This document shows positions 1-8,192 of a stretch of 64,000 nt of DNA, one piece after another. The translations under genes and the position numbers were made by a program. This stretch comes from Escherichia phage vB_EcoP_PE007, in sequence record OQ938542.1; one strand, written 5' to 3'. The notes under the pieces are model-generated. The model made no database searches, was not told the DNA's origin, and saw only the letters and a list, made by a program, of their open reading frames with translations. Numbering within the stretch: position 1 is the first letter of the stretch; the number at the start of each line of letters is the position of its first letter.

Positions 1-324
1 ATGACTACTCAAGCTACTGTACGTATGACCGCAGGAACTTTACTTGGTACTGTTAACTCAGCTGCTACTACTGTTGCAGATACATTCGGTACAGCAACTA
101 AAGCAGTAGGTATGCTTAATTCATATGTTAGTACTATGGCAGAGAAACAAGCCATTCGTACTAAATTAGAAATGCATACATTCGTTAATAAACTGGCAGA
201 GGAAACAGCTATGACTGAGACTCTGCGTAAGAAAAGTATCGAGGAATTCTGCAAGGATTCAGAGAACGCTCGTATCTATAACGCAGAATATTCAAAAGTA
301 ATTGACATCCTGACTAAAGACTAA
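1..324 (+). CDS. hypothetical early protein (may be 5'-partial at window edge)
   Basis: ORF from window position 1, 107 aa; followed by hairpin terminator. Confidence 0.4.
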   Translation: MTTQATVRMTAGTLLGTVNSAATTVADTFGTATKAVGMLNSYVSTMAEKQAIRTKLEMHTFVNKLAEETAMTETLRKKSIEEFCKDSENARIYNAEYSKVIDILTKD

Positions 325-332
325 GTCACCTA

Positions 333-358
333 GGAGGCTCTTCGGAGTCTCCTTTTAT
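333..358 (+). terminator. intrinsic terminator
   Basis: 8-bp GC-rich stem (ggaggctc/gagtctcc, one G-U) with ttcg loop then T-run. Confidence 0.6.
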
Positions 359-412
359 AAACATTAGATAGATAGTCAAAAGTAGATAACTATTCTACTT
401 TGGAGATAGATA

Positions 413-751
413 ATGACTAAGTACATTTGCATAAAATCATTAACTAAAGATGTTCCTGTAGGAACAGAACTAGTAGGAAGATTCCACTCACCAGGAAGAT
501 TCATTCTTACCGAAGATAGTAAATTAAAGTGTGTATCAGGAATAGGACCACGTTGGTACAAAGATGACCAACTACCTCTTCTAGGTGCTTTATGGGTATG
601 GCAATGCCAAGACCCTATTAAAGCTTTAGAACGCTATGAGAAAGCTGTTCGTGCCCATGAAATGCTTGGTGCTCAAGACCCAGAAGATTGGCCTGGAATT
701 GAGAAAGAGTATGAATCTGCTAAGGCAGAATTGCTTAAACATTTGTATTAA
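413..751 (+). CDS. hypothetical early protein
   Basis: 112-aa ORF, GGAG RBS upstream of ATG. Confidence 0.5.
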   Translation: MTKYICIKSLTKDVPVGTELVGRFHSPGRFILTEDSKLKCVSGIGPRWYKDDQLPLLGALWVWQCQDPIKALERYEKAVRAHEMLGAQDPEDWPGIEKEYESAKAELLKHLY

Positions 752-756
752 AAACC

Positions 757-773
757 AGGAAGCTCCGCTTCTA
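757..773 (+). promoter_or_regulatory. candidate virion-RNAP early promoter hairpin (stem gaagc/gcttc, loop tcc)
   Basis: 5-6 bp stem with 3-nt loop, preceded by aaaacca, ~30 nt upstream of next ORF; architecture known for N4 vRNAP promoters. Confidence 0.5.
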
Positions 774-805
774 TTGGGTATCATTTAACTATTGGAGATT
801 AAGCT

Positions 806-1012
806 ATGCGTATTCAAACTTCCTTATTTGCAAACAAGAGTAACAATGGTGGATTGTTAGGTAAGATGAATGCTCAATGGAATCTATGGTTCTCAGAGAT
901 TACTAACGTAATAGAAAGACAGCACTATGTTGCTTGTCACACATTCCCTGTTAAACCTACCAAGAAACAAATCCGTAAATTACGTAGAGAGTTTCGCAAA
1001 GAAGCAATCTAA
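806..1012 (+). CDS. small early protein, basic C-terminus; paralog of 1664-1849
   Basis: 68-aa ORF with RBS; shares C-terminal KPT[KR]KQIRKL motif with ORF 1664-1849. Confidence 0.5.
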   Translation: MRIQTSLFANKSNNGGLLGKMNAQWNLWFSEITNVIERQHYVACHTFPVKPTKKQIRKLRREFRKEAI

Positions 1013-1016
1013 AACC

Positions 1017-1033
1017 AAGACGCTCCGCGTCTT
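1017..1033 (+). promoter_or_regulatory. candidate virion-RNAP early promoter hairpin (stem aagacgc/gcgtctt, loop tcc)
   Basis: 7-bp stem, 3-nt loop, same aaaacca upstream motif as hairpin at 757. Confidence 0.5.
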
Positions 1034-1139
1034 ATGGATGATGTAAATGCATCCACTAATCATTGAACTTTTATCCCTTTGTTTGGGTGTTCTCACCGAC
1101 GAGTTCACCCGTAAATCACATAAATCTGGAGAGTACAAA

Positions 1140-1520
1140 ATGTCTATTCAAAAATTCACTTTCGGTCAATCTAACGCTGCTGCTACCACTGCTAAAGCTG
1201 ATAAACCAAAAGCTCAGTTCTGGCTGAACATTGGTTATGTAGCTAATGAAGGCTCTGATGATGAGAAATTCATCTCACTGCCTACTGGTATTCCACTGGA
1301 TACTCAGGAACCGCTGCCTACTAATAGCAGCAATGCTGACTTCCGTGCTATGCGTTGTGCACAGAATGACTTGCTGGAACAGTTAATCGCTTATGCTCAG
1401 AACCTGGAACCAGGTGAAGAAGGTATCATTAACCTGCAAGTTCAACTTCGTCGTGTGAAAGCAGAGGCTGCTGACATCCCAGCAGACGAGAATAAATATG
1501 CTCGTAAACTGACTTTCTAA
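1140..1520 (+). CDS. hypothetical early protein
   Basis: ATG at 1140 with GGAGA RBS (in frame with longer ORF from 1047); 126 aa. Confidence 0.5.
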
Positions 1521-1529
1521 TCAACCAAT

Positions 1530-1558
1530 AGACTCCCTTCGGGGAGTCTTTTATTTTT
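1530..1558 (+). terminator. intrinsic terminator
   Basis: agactccc-ttcg-gggagtct stem-loop followed by tttatttttt. Confidence 0.7.
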
Positions 1559-1663
1559 AACTAGACGATAAGCTATTTCTACTTTTTGAGTATCTTTAGA
1601 CGAAGGGTACTGAAACAGTAACCAGATAAATATAGATTTATATTAGATGAAGGAGTAACCATT

Positions 1664-1849
1664 ATGCGTACATTATGTAGCCGTTATAACTCGCAGAAGA
1701 TGATTAATATGTTACAACCTTGGGGCAGTAAGATGACACTGAACGCACGTTGGCAGGTATCTGTAAAAGATGAAAATGGTCAGTGTTATGACCACTTCTT
1801 TGTAGCTAAACCTACTCGTAAACAAATCCGTAAACTTCATAAGGCATAA
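1664..1849 (+). CDS. small early protein; paralog of 806-1012
   Basis: 61-aa ORF, AGGAG RBS; conserved C-terminal KPTRKQIRKL. Confidence 0.5.
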   Translation: MRTLCSRYNSQKMINMLQPWGSKMTLNARWQVSVKDENGQCYDHFFVAKPTRKQIRKLHKA

Positions 1850-1853
1850 GACT

Positions 1854-2072
1854 ATGTTGGACTTCATTGCGTTTGTAATACTCTGCTATGTGCTATATCG
1901 CCTACGTGGTTACATTCTCAATGGAGCCAAGTGGGTAGTTACTAAGCTAGTACTTATCCGTAAGTTACCAGTTGTATTCATTAAGTGTCTGTTTGCTTCC
2001 ATCATAGCCAAAGAAGTTCGTAAGCAGCTATGGGCTAAGGAAGCTGAAGAGTTTGCTAAGAGGAACCAGTGA
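1854..2072 (+). CDS. hypothetical protein
   Basis: 72-aa ORF immediately after previous stop. Confidence 0.4.
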   Translation: MLDFIAFVILCYVLYRLRGYILNGAKWVVTKLVLIRKLPVVFIKCLFASIIAKEVRKQLWAKEAEEFAKRNQ

Positions 2073-2251
2073 TATTCACTAACATAGAAGATGCCATTGA
2101 AGAATGTATCTTTCGTAGGTATCACACTGGTGTACAGAAACGACACTATGGTGTTGTACAACTCAATGGCTATCAAATGGTTGTAAGAATTGTACGTAAC
2201 AATAAACCTTTTAACTTTATGTGGAGTACTAAATCATGCGTAAATCATTAA
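2069..2251 (+). CDS. hypothetical protein (GTG start)
   Basis: 60-aa ORF filling gap, GAGGA upstream. Confidence 0.3.
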   Translation: MIFTNIEDAIEECIFRRYHTGVQKRHYGVVQLNGYQMVVRIVRNNKPFNFMWSTKSCVNH

Positions 2252-2364
2252 TCATGGGAACCAGAGAAGACGTGCAAAAGATGAAAGAACGTCTGGTTGC
2301 TAAGAAACAGTCGTCTGAACCAGTACGTAAGATTGTTACCTTCAACCATTCATGTATCAAGTAA
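2236..2364 (+). CDS. small hypothetical protein
   Basis: 42-aa ORF not in track, ends just before terminator. Confidence 0.25.
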   Translation: MRKSLIMGTREDVQKMKERLVAKKQSSEPVRKIVTFNHSCIK

Positions 2365-2368
2365 CTAG

Positions 2369-2399
2369 GAGTCCTCCATTAGGAGGGCTTCTATTTTTT
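2369..2399 (+). terminator. intrinsic terminator
   Basis: cctcc-atta-ggagg stem-loop plus T-run. Confidence 0.6.
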
Positions 2400-2442
2400 A
2401 TTCCTGAATAGTTAGATATGTATTTGAATAGGAGAAATAACC

Positions 2443-2751
2443 TTGAATGAAATTGTTTGTATACTTCCTCATTCAGCTAAGATAGCCGACCGGAATATAC
2501 GTATTCACCTACCATTCCCATTAAGTAATCCATTCACTCGTAATGAAAGAACCACAGTAGAAGATGTAGAGGTAGCTTATGAGGCTTATCTTCGTAATCG
2601 TCTTATTAGTGGTGACAAGTTAATTACAGCAGAGATGGAAAGGATTGCATCCTTTGTAACAGATAGTACAGGTAAGCCTGTTGGCTTAATCGGTACTGAA
2701 TCTGATGTGAATGTTATTCGTAAAATATTAATGGAGGTATTAAATGGCTAA
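2443..2751 (+). CDS. hypothetical protein (TTG start)
   Basis: 102-aa ORF; AGGAG 8 nt upstream of TTG. Confidence 0.45.
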   Translation: MNEIVCILPHSAKIADRNIRIHLPFPLSNPFTRNERTTVEDVEVAYEAYLRNRLISGDKLITAEMERIASFVTDSTGKPVGLIGTESDVNVIRKILMEVLNG

Positions 2752-2974
2752 ATATAAAGTAATACGTTTTGCAGATAATAAACGTGGCATTGGTGCAGAA
2801 GTAGAGAAGAAAACATTCTTTGGAACCAGCACATGGGTGAAGATTGCTACACCTGGTTACGATGAATGCTTTGACAAATGGGTTAATAAAGCAACGGGTA
2901 AATCTGGGTATGCTGATATTTGCATGTCACAGCTTAATGACTTCTATACTGCCAATCACATTACTAAGGAGTAA
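2744..2974 (+). CDS. hypothetical protein
   Basis: 76-aa ORF with GGAGG RBS. Confidence 0.5.
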   Translation: MAKYKVIRFADNKRGIGAEVEKKTFFGTSTWVKIATPGYDECFDKWVNKATGKSGYADICMSQLNDFYTANHITKE

Positions 2975-2979
2975 ACAAA

Positions 2980-3201
2980 ATGTTGTTCAGCACTAATTAT
3001 GGAATCTGCCCAATCTGTAAGAAAGGAAGAGGAGTTGCTAATCATAAGAAGTGTAGTCGTATCCTACAGAAACAACGGAACCAGAAAGAATGGGATAGGA
3101 TATTGGAAAACCAACACAAAGATGAGTTCAAGAAGACGGCTGTTAAGGCATCTACTCAGCTCATTCGTCGTACTAACTTCATAGAAGGTTATCAGAGATG
3201 A
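2980..3201 (+). CDS. small basic Cys-containing protein (possible zinc ribbon)
   Basis: 73 aa; CPICKK...KKCSR motif; RBS present. Confidence 0.45.
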   Translation: MLFSTNYGICPICKKGRGVANHKKCSRILQKQRNQKEWDRILENQHKDEFKKTAVKASTQLIRRTNFIEGYQR

Positions 3202-3554
3202 AACTAATAGTGGCTGGTGGAAGAGACTTCGTAAATACCCAAGTAATGATTACAGTATTAATGGATTTAGTGGAGAAGGGTAAGATTGACCCTAATCCAG
3301 AATTAGTATGTGGTATGGCTCGTGGAGCAGATATATTAGCTTTCCGACTATGGAAATCTGCAAATATGCAGATACATGTATTCCCTGCTGAATGGGATAC
3401 CTATGGTAAATCTGCTGGATTCCGAAGGAATAAAGAAATGGGTGAGTTTGCAGATGCTGCTGTATGTTTCTGGGATGGTAAATCCAAAGGAACCAAGCAC
3501 ATGATTGATATCATGAATAGACTTAATAAACCTGTATATGTTGTGAGGTACTAA
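3198..3554 (+). CDS. SLOG-superfamily protein (DUF2493-like)
   Basis: 118 aa; GGRDF...GMARGADILAFRLW...AGFRRN...FWDGKSKGT pattern recalled for DUF2493/DprA-LOG-like Rossmann fold. Confidence 0.5.
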   Translation: MKLIVAGGRDFVNTQVMITVLMDLVEKGKIDPNPELVCGMARGADILAFRLWKSANMQIHVFPAEWDTYGKSAGFRRNKEMGEFADAAVCFWDGKSKGTKHMIDIMNRLNKPVYVVRY

Positions 3555-3809
3555 ATGATTATTACATATCCTACGGGTAAAACTGTGGAATATATGAAGC
3601 ATACAATTCAAGTGCCTCATTGGGTTAAGTATATAGCATTACTACCTCGCCAATATAAGAGTGCTAATACCTCACTAATAGGATTCTCTAAGAAGCCTAA
3701 GCTAACAGAAAACAATATCTGGGTATCCTCTGGAAGACAAGAAGAGATTGGTTTTTGTGATTTGAGTATTGTCGATAATAACATCTATGGGACATTGAGA
3801 AAGGTATGA
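3555..3809 (+). CDS. hypothetical protein
   Basis: 84-aa ORF. Confidence 0.45.
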   Translation: MIITYPTGKTVEYMKHTIQVPHWVKYIALLPRQYKSANTSLIGFSKKPKLTENNIWVSSGRQEEIGFCDLSIVDNNIYGTLRKV

Positions 3810-4120
3810 AAACTATTCTAATAGTACATGATTCTACATTTACTGATGTAGATAAGATGATGCGTAATATTGATTATGTATCTCAGACAAGCCAAGCATT
3901 CAATGAAGAGTTTACTCTGTACTGTAATGCTGAATCTCCGCTGGTTCCTATCCTTAAGGAATCAGGTCTACCATTCTCTACAGAGAACTTCCCGGAAGAA
4001 CCAGACTATGTAATTTCATTTATCTATGACTTACATGATGGCTCTGAAACTAGTGAACTAGCTATGAACCAGTGGCGTAGTAAACGTCCTGTGTTTGCAT
4101 TTCAGGTACTTAAACCATGA
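3806..4120 (+). CDS. hypothetical protein
   Basis: 104-aa ORF, start overlaps previous stop. Confidence 0.5.
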   Translation: MKTILIVHDSTFTDVDKMMRNIDYVSQTSQAFNEEFTLYCNAESPLVPILKESGLPFSTENFPEEPDYVISFIYDLHDGSETSELAMNQWRSKRPVFAFQVLKP

Positions 4121-4500
4121 AGATTATGTCATTAGGTGACGACACCAATGCTTTACTAGGTGTATCTGCACGTCCAATCATCATTGTTAATAAACATCAC
4201 GGTAAATCTGGTGAGTATATTGGGCGTGGCTCACCATTAGGCAATCCATTTGTCATTGGTAAAGACGGTTCGAGAGAACAGGTTATAGCCAAATATCGAG
4301 TATGGCTTAATGAACAAATTATGAGAAAGAATCCAGTTGTACTGGATGAACTTAATCGTCTTGGTAATAAAGCCATTGACGAGAAAGGATTAGCCTTACA
4401 GTGCTTCTGTTATCCGAAACCATGTCATGGCGAGGTTATTAAAGAGAAGCTAGTGAAAGCTATGTATAACTATTTTGTGGAGAATCCCAATGGCATTTAG
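4117..4500 (+). CDS. DUF4326-like protein
   Basis: 127 aa; GSPLGNPF...YRVWL...CFCYPKPCHGEV pattern recalled for DUF4326. Confidence 0.4.
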   Translation: MKIMSLGDDTNALLGVSARPIIIVNKHHGKSGEYIGRGSPLGNPFVIGKDGSREQVIAKYRVWLNEQIMRKNPVVLDELNRLGNKAIDEKGLALQCFCYPKPCHGEVIKEKLVKAMYNYFVENPNGI

Positions 4501-4873
4501 TGATATTAACCATCCAGCTTTATGGGGTATTTTACATATCCCAAGTAATAAGTTATTGCGTCAATATCCTAAAGGGTATGGGCATACTCAATTAGACGTT
4601 GAAGATCCAGTTAATCATGAAAGACGCAAACGTGGTATTAATTTACCACCTCGTCTGTTCACTGATGAAGATACAGCTAAAAGGGCATTAACTAGTTGGT
4701 TAGCTGGTTCCTGGAAAACTGAATTAGAGTATGAATCAACTGACGAATATGGTAGTGGGTTCTATTATAGGGATGTACCATCACCCCATAAAAAGGCAAA
4801 TCGTATTAAAGAGGATATGAAAGTAGTTCCTGTTTATCTATATACAGATGCAAAAGAGGAACTATATGTCTAA
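4490..4873 (+). CDS. hypothetical protein
   Basis: ATG at 4490 inside ORF 4475-4873; 127 aa. Confidence 0.45.
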   Translation: MAFSDINHPALWGILHIPSNKLLRQYPKGYGHTQLDVEDPVNHERRKRGINLPPRLFTDEDTAKRALTSWLAGSWKTELEYESTDEYGSGFYYRDVPSPHKKANRIKEDMKVVPVYLYTDAKEELYV

Positions 4874-5051
4874 ACAATGCAAATGTGGTAAAGGCCATGT
4901 ATCCCAGTGGGATGGTAAATGTGGCCATTGCCGAACCAAGAAAGAGCAACGTGACCATGAATATGCTCTTACTTACTTAGAATTAACCAGAGCCAACAAC
5001 AATATGACCACACACGATGCTTATATTTATAACAGAGAGGCATGTAAATGA
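4848..5051 (+). CDS. small Cys-rich protein (CxC...CxxC)
   Basis: 67 aa; CKCGKGH...CGHC suggests zinc binding. Confidence 0.45.
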   Translation: MQKRNYMSKQCKCGKGHVSQWDGKCGHCRTKKEQRDHEYALTYLELTRANNNMTTHDAYIYNREACK

Positions 5052-5398
5052 AAGAAATCTTAGTATTCACTACCAATGTACTTGGGCAGCATATCAATGC
5101 TGCTGCCAAATTAGCATATAAGAAGCATGGTGCTCGCTGGGGTATGGCCTATGGTCATTATGGTAATAGCTTTGCCATTCCAGTAAAGGATGGTTATGGT
5201 AACCGGATTAAAGAGGGTACTATCTATGGCTTCATTGAAGGTTTCATTGCCTATGCATCTTCTAATCCACAATGGGATTTCAAAGTTATGAGTAATGACT
5301 ATCTGGACCCATACCAATTCATTAACGTAACTGGAAATGTACTGTTACCAGAAGCATGGCGTAAACACTTAGGCGATGCTTACAACTACTGGAGTTAA
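5048..5398 (+). CDS. hypothetical protein
   Basis: 116-aa ORF, start overlaps previous stop. Confidence 0.5.
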   Translation: MKEILVFTTNVLGQHINAAAKLAYKKHGARWGMAYGHYGNSFAIPVKDGYGNRIKEGTIYGFIEGFIAYASSNPQWDFKVMSNDYLDPYQFINVTGNVLLPEAWRKHLGDAYNYWS

Positions 5399-5400
5399 TA

Positions 5401-5661
5401 ATGACTTATGAAGAATTATGGTCTGCTCAAGTCAGAGCCAGAGCACTTACACGACACGATATCTATTGTGCATTACAGAACGAATTAAAGAGTCGTACTA
5501 AGCTGGGTCACATATCTGGTTTAGTTAAAATACCTATGACTAGCCTAGTATGGCCTTATCAGAAGAAAAATAATGAATTTAATGGTAATGGATTGCATGT
5601 ACGCATCGACTACATCGGTAATGAAAATAGTATTCGTATTACCTTTTGGACTAAGCGTTAG
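5401..5661 (+). CDS. hypothetical protein
   Basis: 86-aa ORF. Confidence 0.5.
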   Translation: MTYEELWSAQVRARALTRHDIYCALQNELKSRTKLGHISGLVKIPMTSLVWPYQKKNNEFNGNGLHVRIDYIGNENSIRITFWTKR

Positions 5662-5666
5662 GTAAT

Positions 5667-5681
5667 AGCTGCTCCGCAGCT
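5667..5681 (+). promoter_or_regulatory. candidate virion-RNAP early promoter hairpin (stem agctgc/gcagct, loop tcc)
   Basis: 6-bp stem, 3-nt tcc loop, 13 nt upstream of next ORF. Confidence 0.45.
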
Positions 5682-5693
5682 TAAGGATATGAA

Positions 5694-5927
5694 ATGTCAG
5701 TATCAATTCAGCAGATCATAGCTAAGAAACATAAACATAAATGGGGTAATTATCCAAAGATTAAAGAAGCAGTTAAAGGGGCATATGAAAGCCCTAATAA
5801 TTGGTGTGAAGTAGAATTATCCTTCCCGTGGGCATGGAGACATAACTTCCATGGAAACTACATAAGAATGTATTACCGATGTGCTAGTGAGCATAAAACC
5901 AGGTCTCTAATAGCAAGTATTGTTTAA
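5694..5927 (+). CDS. hypothetical protein
   Basis: 77-aa ORF. Confidence 0.45.
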   Translation: MSVSIQQIIAKKHKHKWGNYPKIKEAVKGAYESPNNWCEVELSFPWAWRHNFHGNYIRMYYRCASEHKTRSLIASIV

Positions 5928-5947
5928 ATTAATTAGGAGAATAAGCG

Positions 5948-6766
5948 ATGTACTCATCAATTGAACATCAGAAGCAACTCGAAAAACTATTCAATAAAAA
6001 TCAGCTCTTGCCTCGCATGAGGAAGGAATTCGAGGACTCCGAAGAAATTGACTTTAAGGCATTCGCTGCCTATTTAGAAATTGATTATAAGCTGCTCATT
6101 GATGCAATGGTGCAGATTGCCTTACATAAACGTGCTGACATCCAGACTATGATTGGCTCTCTCATGAGTCACTCAGATGACGCTCAGTACATCGCTGACT
6201 GTCTGTATAAGATGGCAGAGAATGACTGCTTCAACTATGACCCTACCATCGACAAGTTCGGTGTTATTTATGAGATTAGTGAAGATGTACAGATGGAACT
6301 GGAGGCATTCCAGTATCCTTTGCCTATCGTAAGTGCTCCTAAGCCTGTTAAGTGTAATCGTGATACTGGTTACTACGAAAGCAGGGGTAGCATCATTCTC
6401 AAGAAGAACCATCATGAAATGGATGTCTGTCTTGACCACATCAACCGTATGAATAACCAACGTCTCTGTATTAACTGGGACGTTGCTAACTATGTAAAAG
6501 ACTCTCGTCCTAACATGGATAAACCCAAAGAAGGTGAAACCCGTCAGGACTATGAGAAACGTGTTAAAGCCTTTGAGAAGTACAGCCGTACAGCTAAGGA
6601 AGTAATGGAGTTAGTGACCAAAGAAGGTAATAACTTCTCCTTGGCTCACAAATATGACAAACGTGGGCGTACATATGCCTGTGGCTACCACATCAATTTT
6701 CAGGGAACCAGCTACAACAAAGCTGTACTTGAGTTCGCTGATAAGGAGTTAGTAAATGAAGACTAA
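5948..6766 (+). CDS. RNA polymerase II small subunit-like (N4 gp15-like)
   Basis: 272 aa immediately upstream of a T7-like RNAP catalytic fragment; size and position as in N4. Confidence 0.5.
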   Translation: MYSSIEHQKQLEKLFNKNQLLPRMRKEFEDSEEIDFKAFAAYLEIDYKLLIDAMVQIALHKRADIQTMIGSLMSHSDDAQYIADCLYKMAENDCFNYDPTIDKFGVIYEISEDVQMELEAFQYPLPIVSAPKPVKCNRDTGYYESRGSIILKKNHHEMDVCLDHINRMNNQRLCINWDVANYVKDSRPNMDKPKEGETRQDYEKRVKAFEKYSRTAKEVMELVTKEGNNFSLAHKYDKRGRTYACGYHINFQGTSYNKAVLEFADKELVNED

Positions 6767-6917
6767 CATTGGATCCTATGAGCTATGGGTTAATGAAGAG
6801 TGTATCTACTCAGGTACATATGTGAAGTGCTTATACTTTGAGAAGCTTTACAAGCTTCAAAACCCTGAGAGTAAAACCATTATTTATAAACTATCTGCCG
6901 ACGTAGTAACTGGCTAA
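6756..6917 (+). CDS. small hypothetical protein
   Basis: 54-aa ORF not in track, between the two RNAPII genes. Confidence 0.3.
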   Translation: MKTNIGSYELWVNEECIYSGTYVKCLYFEKLYKLQNPESKTIIYKLSADVVTG

Positions 6918-6974
6918 TCCATCCAATAAGCAGGCTCTCCATAGTGGGGAGCCAAGAAGCAAAAGGAACATAAA

Positions 6975-8192
6975 ATGCAACTGTTAACCGCTCGTGAATA
7001 CCTGAAAGTAGATATTGCTAATAACTATGGCTTAGATAAGAAGACATGGGATGAGCGTATTGCCTGGTTCGATGAGAACGAAGCTAACCTGCTTAATCTG
7101 GTAGATGAGGCAGAGGATTCCGCTCTGTTCTTTGCAGGTATAAACGCATGGAAAGACATGAAAGCAGGTAAGCCTATCGGTTATGCCGTAGCTCTGGATG
7201 CTACATCATCTGGCTTGCAGTTACTGGCCTGCCTGACTGGTGACCGTTCTGCTGCTGAACTGTGTAATGTAGTTAACTACATGGGAGAGAATGGTAAGCC
7301 ATTACGTCGTGATGCTTATACAGTTATCTATCACAAGATGCTGGACATCCTTGGTGAAGCATCACGTATTAAACGTAGTGACACTAAGCAGGCAGTTATG
7401 ACTGCATTCTACGGCTCAGAAGCCAAGCCTAAAGAAGTATTCGGTGAAGGTATTCGTCTCAAGACTTTTGAGAATGTAATGGAAACTGTTGCTAGTGGTC
7501 CTTGGGCATTGAACAAGTTCTTACTGCAATGTGGTAATCCAGATGCCAACCGTTACATATGGATACTTCCTGACAACTTCCATGCTGTCATTAAGGTCAT
7601 GGTTCCAGAAGTACAGACTGTTAACTTCTTAGGCAAACCGTTCGACATTACTCGTATGGTTCAGGGTACTGAAGAGAAGACTCGTATGCTCTCTGCTAAC
7701 ATCACCCACTCTATTGATGGAATGGTGGTACGTGAGATGCTACGTCGTTGTAACTTCGACATGAACCAGGTGGGCTATATTAAGTCCCTTTGCGAGGGAA
7801 CAGGTGATTACATGGTTGGATCTGATGATAACTATGAAATGGTTAATACACTGTGGACTAGTTATGAGAAATCAGGCTTCCTGTCTACTCGTATCTTTGA
7901 CTATCTGGATTCAGAAACCATTGCATTGGTTGATACAGATGTAATCCTGGCTATGCTCAACACTATGCCTAAGAAACCATTCCCTGTAATGACTGTACAT
8001 GACTGCTTCCGTTGCCATCCTAACTACGGTAATGACCTGCGTCGTCAATACAATCAGATCTTGTCTGACATTGCTAAGAGTGACTTACTGGGCTTCATTC
8101 TGTCTCAGGTACTGGGACAAGAGTTCTCTGCTGGTAAGCTGGATGACAGCCTCTGGCAGGACATCCTTGAAACAGACTATGCGTTGAGTTAA
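6975..8192 (+). CDS. RNA polymerase II large subunit-like, T7-like single-subunit RNAP catalytic fragment (N4 gp16-like)
   Basis: 405 aa; DATSSGLQLLA resembles T7 RNAP motif A (DGSCSGIQH) and MTVHDCF resembles motif C (HDSFG). Confidence 0.65.
   Translation: MQLLTAREYLKVDIANNYGLDKKTWDERIAWFDENEANLLNLVDEAEDSALFFAGINAWKDMKAGKPIGYAVALDATSSGLQLLACLTGDRSAAELCNVVNYMGENGKPLRRDAYTVIYHKMLDILGEASRIKRSDTKQAVMTAFYGSEAKPKEVFGEGIRLKTFENVMETVASGPWALNKFLLQCGNPDANRYIWILPDNFHAVIKVMVPEVQTVNFLGKPFDITRMVQGTEEKTRMLSANITHSIDGMVVREMLRRCNFDMNQVGYIKSLCEGTGDYMVGSDDNYEMVNTLWTSYEKSGFLSTRIFDYLDSETIALVDTDVILAMLNTMPKKPFPVMTVHDCFRCHPNYGNDLRRQYNQILSDIAKSDLLGFILSQVLGQEFSAGKLDDSLWQDILETDYALS

Follow-up and report, generated by a model that had tools for sequence, protein, structure and literature searches.

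Three DNA hairpins in the early region of coliphage vB_EcoP_PE007 are predicted N4-type promoters for the virion RNA polymerase

In the early region of Escherichia phage vB_EcoP_PE007, three GC-rich DNA hairpins with the same TCC loop stand ahead of open reading frames (ORFs), and the question they raise is whether they are promoters and, if so, which RNA polymerase reads them. We addressed this question in a stretch of 64,000 nucleotides from this phage (sequence record OQ938542.1), which is called the window throughout. The answer at which we arrive is that the three hairpins are very probably early promoters for the injected virion RNA polymerase (vRNAP) of a G7C-like (N4-like) coliphage. 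An initial annotation of the sequence had already read them as N4-type vRNAP promoters, and this reading is now supported by the observed anatomy and sequence determinants of the hairpins, their non-random occurrence, their conservation with covariation, their orthology to the N4 promoters P2 and P3, the recognition residues present in the polymerase and the annotation of a related phage, KP8. As for the phage itself, a megablast search with window positions 1-7000 against GenBank phages returned 83 records, all of them Schitoviridae/Enquatrovirinae N4-like coliphages and Klebsiella or Shigella phages, and the top relatives at 90-94% identity were 24-32N, SP5M, ShWW44, St11Ph5, ECBP1, IME11 and Bp4 (Gamaleyavirus, the G7C group). 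In the linear records of relatives, the ATG of gene 1 stands at about position 136-144, and this is where the match to the window starts. Judged by these alignments, the window represents the left 64 kb of a coliphage that is G7C-like (Gamaleyavirus, Schitoviridae); it begins at the gp1 ATG and thus lacks the leftmost ~140 nt of the genome. Within a genome of about 72 kb, the three hairpins are located 0.8, 1.0 and 5.7 kb in, and they share the plus strand with all of the early genes. The long minus-strand ORFs nearest to them start at about 37 kb, with none within about 30 kb.

The anatomy of the three sites is uniform (Table 1). Hairpin 1 has a perfect 5-bp stem, GAAGC/GCTTC, at 759-771, with the loop TCC at 764-766, its centre (position -11) at 765 and a predicted +1 at G776. 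Hairpin 2 has a 7-bp stem at 1017-1033, a loop centre at 1025 and a predicted +1 at G1036, and hairpin 3 a 6-bp stem at 5667-5681, a loop centre at 5674 and a predicted +1 at G5685. The earlier description of three TCC-loop hairpins with stems of 5-7 bp therefore holds, with the correction that the perfect stem of hairpin 1 does not span 757-773, since the extension to those positions consists of one G.T wobble (758/772; an A.C mismatch on the template) and one A.A mismatch. The template loop GGA with its central G, also part of that description, is found at all three sites within the template core GCGGAGC. This core heptamer, GCTCCGC on the plus strand, occurs at 762, 1022 and 5671 and has no other copy in the 64 kb on either strand. 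A GG dinucleotide stands 11-12 nt 3' of the loop centre at all three hairpins (776-777, 1036-1037 and 5685-5686), and the minimum-free-energy DNA fold of either strand is, at each site, the hairpin itself. The distance from the end of the stem to the next ATG is 32 nt for the ORF at 806, 13 nt for the ORF at 1047 and 12 nt for the ORF at 5694, with 106 nt to an internal ATG at 1140. The spacing proposed initially, 13-30 nt or about 100 nt for a gene starting at 1140, is thus right for the 13 and 106 nt and slightly too narrow for the 32 and 12 nt.

All three hairpins are intergenic, lie on the early-gene strand and follow the stop codon of the preceding ORF by 5-10 nt. This last feature, along with plus-strand folds that are as stable as the template-strand folds, would also suit hairpins that act in RNA, as 3'-end protective or processing stem-loops of the upstream transcripts, and that are not promoters or not only promoters. 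We regard such a role as very unlikely, and we found nothing specific in favour of it as a second function. A terminator scan detected no plus-strand T-run behind the hairpin at any of the three sites, whereas true hairpin and T-run terminators stand separately in the same region (Table 1). Furthermore, the equivalent sites that precede gp1 in relatives (P1-type sites) are at the genome end and have no upstream transcript, and an RNA role leaves unexplained both the strict conservation of loop and GG and the identity with proven N4 promoters that are described below. A search of Rfam with window positions 1-7000 gave no match at E-values up to 1.

We next compared the hairpins with the early promoters of N4. 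The N4 promoters P1, P2 and P3 are said to have been defined as vRNAP DNA-hairpin promoters in work by Haynes and Rothman-Denes in 1985, Glucksmann in 1992, Davydova in 2007 and Gleghorn in 2008. We took their determinants from a review (PMC4496689), which describes a GC-rich heptamer that has its centre at -11 and inverted repeats on both sides, a polymerase that reads template -11A/G, -10G, -8G and +1C, a sheared pair between -10G and -12A, contacts of residues D901 and R904 with -9C/-10G/-8G, and a start site set eight nucleotides after -8. At all three window sites the non-template strand reads T(-12) C(-11) C(-10) G(-9) C(-8) and the template strand -12A, -11G, -10G, -9C, -8G and +1C, which means that every published sequence determinant is present. 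When the entire window was scanned with relaxed criteria (stems from 4 bp upwards with G.T pairs tolerated, an NYC loop, -8 C and +1 G), no credible promoter emerged beyond these three sites, and the same scan of the N4 genome (EF056009) yields three sites that agree with the published P1-P3 and have the +1 spacing seen in the window (Table 1). The comparison with P1, P2 and P3 suggested in the initial annotation thus reveals one architecture, with 5-7 bp stems, a 3-nt loop, a start 11 nt from the loop centre and a location on the early strand, in the leftmost genome region. By position, hairpin 2 is the orthologue of N4 P2 and hairpin 3 that of N4 P3. The N4 hairpins at these two places are nearly identical to those of the window, the hairpin 3 stem being AGCTGC here and AAGCTGC in N4 P3. 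There are also several differences. The stem sequences differ from those of N4 through compensatory changes, TTTT does not occupy positions -4 to -1, N4 P2 has no equivalent of the AAAACC box at hairpins 1 and 2, and gp15 is separated from hairpin 3 by an additional small ORF. In addition, the window has one promoter more than N4, namely hairpin 1, which stands before an accessory ORF that is missing in N4.

The template core of the three sites is also known as a free DNA structure. GCGGAGC is a documented member of the extra-stable GCGNAGC DNA mini-hairpins, with N = G and a melting temperature of 73 C, and has been named as the target of N4 mini-vRNAP (PMC13037366). This extra stability would account for the template arm, rather than the GCTCCGC arm, being the one that survives single-stranded DNA-binding protein (SSB). 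By analogy with N4, the core would serve here as a protein recognition element, and unlike the free mini-hairpins (PMC13037366) it is embedded in a stem of 5-7 bp.

Hairpins as such are common in this DNA: counting perfect stems of 5 bp or more that close a 3-nt loop, the window contains 110. A hairpin alone is therefore no evidence, and we used the N4-defined core in a shuffle test with 1000 dinucleotide-preserving shuffles, the criteria of which were drawn from the N4 literature and not from the window. Stems of at least 5 bp with any TCC/GGA loop were observed four times against 1.75 expected, a number reached by 108 of the 1000 shuffles. Adding the GC-TCC-GC core to the stem of at least 5 bp left three observed sites against 0.035 expected, and adding GG at +1/+2 as well left the same three against 0.001 expected, with none of the 1000 shuffles reaching three in either case. 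The heptamer GCTCCGC by itself is not enriched (three observed, 2.3 expected) and is informative only in combination with the stem. The number of ordinary hairpins and the unremarkable heptamer count are what could be said for inverted repeats that arose by chance and have no function. However, the combination of core and stem far exceeds expectation, and the sites are all intergenic, all on one strand and conserved with compensatory changes. The probability that remains for chance is practically negligible, as this explanation is excluded by the shuffle test and by the selection-free test on relatives that is described next.

Conservation was analyzed in 27 non-redundant loci, obtained from IMG/VR through the gp2 homologue and from GenBank records; searching IMG/VR with the gp15 homologue added no more than one new locus, and GenBank phage records were used instead. 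For a selection-free test we located GCT[CT]CGC-N7-GG by sequence only, with no outer stem required. The 27 loci contain 87 such sites, and all 87 are on the early strand and all 87 have perfect stems of at least 5 bp (5 bp in 23 sites, 6 bp in 49, 7 bp in 14 and 8 bp in one). Among heptamers that lack GG at that spacing, 21 of 24 fall short of a 5-bp stem. Aligned with one another, the 55 distinct site sequences need no gaps, and 89.6% of the cells of a 7-pair stem are paired, versus 73.3% in shuffles and 20-46% with the register shifted by 1-3 columns. The covariation score of these 55 sites is 0.476, versus 0.144 in shuffles and at most 0.115 with the register slid. Changes on both sides occur in six of the seven stem pairs, and the inner pairs -16/-6 and -15/-7 each exhibit four pair types, in agreement with a promoter class in which the unconserved stem bases may vary provided that they still pair. 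Conservation of the hairpins in related phages, a point on which the initial annotation had made its reading depend, is thus observed, and it comes with compensatory stem changes.

The conservation also extends to the positions of the sites. When window positions 700-1150 were compared by blastn, the alignments with N4 and with most of the 83 relatives began at query 311-318, equal to window 1010-1017, which is the first base of the box or the stem at hairpin 2; this was the case in more than 60 relatives. In essentially all Enquatrovirinae loci that we examined, the conserved gp2 start (ATGCATCCA or ATGAATCCA) has a hairpin ahead of it, with stems that read AAGAAGC, AAGATGC, AAGACGC, AGACGC, GACGC, GGCTGC or AGCTGC. 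Hairpin 1, for which N4 has no counterpart, has orthologues in SP5M, L009, ST4, KKP 3715 and also KP8, where it corresponds to the promoter annotated as P2, and a small ORF between a hairpin-3-type promoter and gp15 is found in SP5M, 24-32N and KP8 as well as in this phage. In relatives the P1 site lies about 50 nt before the gp1 ATG, as in SP5M at 78-98 (ACATGC TCC GCATGT tat GGAC), and by this comparison a fourth promoter, P1, with the same expected sequence, should lie just to the left of the window. A variant hairpin, GCTGT TCC ACAGC, was observed in G7C at 802, pSb-1 at 6709 and Moo19 at 3236 (coordinates of the fetched loci). It has a T-A loop-closing pair, with T instead of C at template -9, and is otherwise canonical with GG at +1. 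In N4 work a G:C loop-closing pair is reported as required, together with a 5' G and a 3' A in the loop (PMC4496689, PMC13037366). This variant may be a weak promoter or one of altered specificity.

Two related phages provide outside comparisons. The RefSeq record of KP8 (NC_048700), a phage of the different genus Kaypoctavirus, has four 'early promoter' features at equivalent places, and these P1-P4 are listed as putative promoters that were predicted by similarity only (PMC6950046, Table 1). As in this phage, where P1 is expected just left of the window, the four precede gp1, an accessory ORF, gp2 and a small ORF ahead of the RNAPII subunit gene. The KP8 P2 sequence, AAGACGCTCCGCGTCTTATGGA, is identical to window positions 1017-1038; unlike here, where this sequence precedes gp2, in KP8 it stands before ORF4. 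The hairpins are very probably new members of a well-known and experimentally defined promoter class, the equivalents of which are already annotated in a sister genus. In the N4-like Pseudomonas phage LUZ7, early transcription start sites that were mapped by ONT-cappable-seq fall at hairpins and start with G (PMC9163698). LUZ7 shares with the window several early-region promoters, a hairpin stem of at least 4 bp, a conserved 3-nt loop and a G start, but it belongs to a distant genus, has nine early start sites and starts 13-14 bp from the hairpin centre rather than the 11 seen here and in N4 (PMC9163698).

LUZ7 also brings up the possibility that the hairpins are promoters for the phage middle polymerase, RNAPII, and not for vRNAP, because such a role was suggested for the middle promoters of LUZ7, which are GC-rich hairpins that lie some 15 bp before a G start (PMC9163698). 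In N4, however, the RNAPII promoters are described as a different, sequence-specific type that starts at T (PMC9163698), and the window sites are identical in all determinants to N4 P2 and P3, which are known vRNAP sites. Moreover, the sites precede gp2 and the RNAPII genes, which are needed before RNAPII exists, and this makes promoters for RNAPII scarcely credible.

If vRNAP is the reader of the three hairpins, then the polymerase should have retained its means of recognition. The virion-packaged RNA polymerase gene that the initial annotation had placed in the same window is indeed there (Table 1), and it encodes a homologue of N4 gp50 with 68% identity overall and 71% over the polymerase domain, which takes up residues of about 1105-2210 of the window protein. 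This protein retains K114, R119, W129, K268, K849, K850, D901 and R904 together with the catalytic residues. The retained promoter-contact residues lead us to expect an unchanged promoter specificity, and the window vRNAP is, from its sequence, the enzyme expected to read the three promoters. As a side observation, the listed vRNAP ORF starts at a TTG six codons upstream of MSTFDRLAGFADS, which aligns with the N-terminus of N4 gp50, so the true start is probably the ATG at about 48055.

Several observations weigh against the hairpins being vRNAP promoters. Their DNA folding energies are modest, with -3.2, -6.9 and -5.7 kcal/mol (z-scores -0.8, -3.4 and -1.4) on the template strand for hairpins 1, 2 and 3, respectively, although this may be because standard DNA parameters omit the special stability of GNA mini-hairpins. 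The template stem of hairpin 1 is just 5 bp, and position -1 is variable, being A at hairpin 3 versus T at all three N4 promoters. The covariation alignment is circular, given that its 55 sites were chosen for having stems, and it describes the variety of the stems rather than proving that they pair; only the test on the 87 sites, which were picked for their sequence, avoids this circularity, and many of the 87 are orthologous and not independent. In the polymerase, K267 of the beta-intercalating hairpin is N, the sole change among the promoter-contact residues checked. Finally, the gp2 promoter hairpin is broken in one relative, ST4. The ST4 record (OM982646, 'partial genome') reads AAGATGC TCC TCGTCTT at the gp2 position (~6300-6340), which could be a sequencing error or a genuinely degenerate site.

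Taking the vRNAP promoters as the preferred reading, the N4 model for cruciform extrusion, SSB dependence and the actual start sites can be carried over to this phage as follows. The left genome end would enter the cell first, as in N4, and negative supercoiling driven by gyrase would extrude each inverted repeat as a cruciform. Host SSB would melt the non-template arm, and the mini-hairpin of the template core 5'-GCGGAGC-3', with its sheared G:A pair, would survive. The vRNAP would then bind the template hairpin, with W129 stacking on -11G, K114/R119 contacting -10G/-11G and D901/R904 contacting -9C/-10G/-8G, and would start with GTP 11 nt past the loop centre, at 776, 1036 and 5685. Three units would result, in which hairpin 1 drives the accessory ORF, hairpin 2 drives gp2, and hairpin 3 drives the small ORF behind it and the RNAPII subunit genes, and transcripts would end at the hairpin and T-run terminators listed in Table 1. 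It is a matter of speculation that the promoter number (four here with P1, three in N4) follows the number of vRNAP copies in a virion, which is roughly four.

These assignments place three predicted start signals in an otherwise unannotated early region and define its early units, those of the accessory ORF, gp2 and the RNAPII genes. They also indicate that the N4 vRNAP promoter code, a template GCGGAGC hairpin with +1 C at fixed spacing, is unchanged across Enquatrovirinae. Their use lies in annotation and phage engineering, with no new principle involved. Mildly new are a predicted promoter that N4 does not have, the conservation of the AAAACC box, a conserved inverted repeat at the 5' end of the predicted gp2 transcript and the coincidence of mosaic breakpoints with promoters.

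With regard to the AAAACC box, the aaaacca motif that had been noted initially as common to hairpins 1 and 2 is present directly 5' of both (Table 1). The box, AAAACC(A), lies just past the stop codon of the upstream ORF and precedes internal hairpin promoters in 20 of 35 fetched loci, and it is absent from hairpin 3, from P1-type and gp15-type sites and from N4 P2 and P3. On the minus strand it resembles the T-run of a terminator, and its CCA can pair with TGG at -1 to +2. This resemblance gives rise to another explanation, in which the hairpins are intrinsic terminators of minus-strand (antisense) transcription. Hairpins 1 and 2 are then followed by GGTTTT(T/A), the terminator scan lists both on the minus strand (1034-1016 and 771-759) because the box reads GGTTTT there, and the box is kept before many internal sites in relatives. 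Nonetheless, this T-run is only 4-5 nt long and is separated from the stem by GG, and the box is lacking at hairpin 3, which the scan does not flag, at all P1-type sites and at N4 P2 and P3. There are also no minus-strand genes within about 30 kb, and the invariant TCC loop, the invariant -8 and the plus-strand GG at a fixed distance would go unexplained. We rejected antisense terminators as covering just two of the three sites with no minus-strand genes nearby, and we consider them extremely unlikely.

The promoters are also found where related genomes differ in gene content. The cassette formed by hairpin 1 and ORF 806-1012 (window 757-1016) is missing from 24-32N and ECBP1, and the breakpoints fall at the AAAACCAAGA box on the left and at the gp2 hairpin on the right (780-925 in 24-32N and 1350-1495 in ECBP1, in coordinates of the fetched loci). 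Identical promoter sequences also occur at different gene positions in different phages, the KP8 P2 sequence and the gp2 promoter of the window being an example. One possibility, which we put forward tentatively and hold to be rather unlikely, is that the hairpin promoters and the AAAACC box double as portable cassette boundaries at which recombination adds, removes or exchanges accessory early ORFs. An analogous proposal exists for the promoter-early stem-loops of T4-type phages.

Table 1. Coordinates of the predicted promoters and neighbouring features (window positions) and of the N4 promoters (positions in EF056009)
Feature	Position	Strand	Remarks
Hairpin 1, 'extra' early promoter (predicted), -17 to +2	759-777	+	GAAGC TCC GCTTC tatt GG; before ORF 806-1012
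Hairpin 2, predicted early promoter before gp2 homologue	1017-1037	+	AAGACGC TCC GCGTCTT at GG
Hairpin 3, predicted early promoter before ORF 5694-5927 and RNAPII genes	5667-5686	+	AGCTGC TCC GCAGCT taa GG
AAAACCA box directly 5' of hairpin 1	751-757	+	sequence
AAAACCA box directly 5' of hairpin 2	1011-1017	+	sequence
gp1 homologue, first early gene	1-324	+	own promoter P1 left of window
Early terminator, hairpin and T-run after gp1	329-358	+	annotated as terminator in SP5M
ORF between gp1 terminator and hairpin 1	413-751	+	without a hairpin promoter of its own
Accessory ORF in variable gp1-gp2 interval	806-1012	+	behind hairpin 1
gp2 homologue (RNAPII cofactor)	1047-1520	+	internal start 1140 annotated instead in some records
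Early terminator, hairpin and T-run after gp2	1530-1559	+	terminator scan
Early terminator, hairpin and T-run	2366-2403	+	terminator scan
Small ORF	5694-5927	+	behind hairpin 3
RNAPII subunit genes	5948-8192	+	gp15 homologue 5948-6766, small ORF 6756-6917, gp16 homologue 6975-8192
Virion RNA polymerase, N4 gp50 homologue, 3590 aa	37301-48073	-	matches N4 vRNAP structures at E = 0
N4 P1	90-102		GTTGC TTC GCAAC then ttat GGA; before gp1
N4 P2	557-573		AAGAAGC TCC GCTTCTT then tt GGA; directly before gp2
N4 P3	4546-4562		AAGCTGC TCC GCAGCTT then tt GGT; before RNAPII genes

Additional features of the early units concern their ORFs and the ends of their transcripts. The ORF at 413-751 lacks its own hairpin promoter, and for it to be expressed, transcription would have to pass the gp1 terminator or begin at a promoter of another type. 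Regarding gp2, the N4, G7C and KP8 records place its start at an ATG 11 nt past the predicted +1 that has no Shine-Dalgarno sequence, and the SP5M and Moo19 records place it at the internal ATG (1140 here) behind GGAGAG. A peptide encoded in the interval from one start to the other, MHP(I/L)..E(I/L)L..CLG.LTD, is shared by N4 and this phage, and its conservation speaks for the upstream start or for an mRNA that is nearly leaderless.

The predicted gp2 transcript opens with an inverted repeat that runs from +1 and encloses the gp2 ATG (window 1036-1054, GGATGatgtaaATGCATCC; N4 576-593). Its GGAT/ATCC is invariant in 11 distinct relatives, and by eye the fifth pair changes from G-C to T-A in three of them. 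RNAalifold reported only the four invariant pairs for this leader hairpin and counted no compensatory change. P1 transcripts likewise open with an inverted repeat, GGACA TGT TGTCC (N4 107-119). The inverted repeat of the gp2 leader may form a 5' stem-loop that affects mRNA stability or translation.

A further element follows the early terminators. An 8-bp inverted repeat, AAAGTAGA-N7-TCTACTTT, is present at 379-401 behind the gp1 terminator, and TCTACTTT occurs again behind the gp2 terminator at 1578-1585, with a similar 'ctatctacttt' in N4 at 541-550. Across the window this octamer is not enriched (six copies, 3.6 expected). The TCTACTTT element could be a middle-promoter or other signal.

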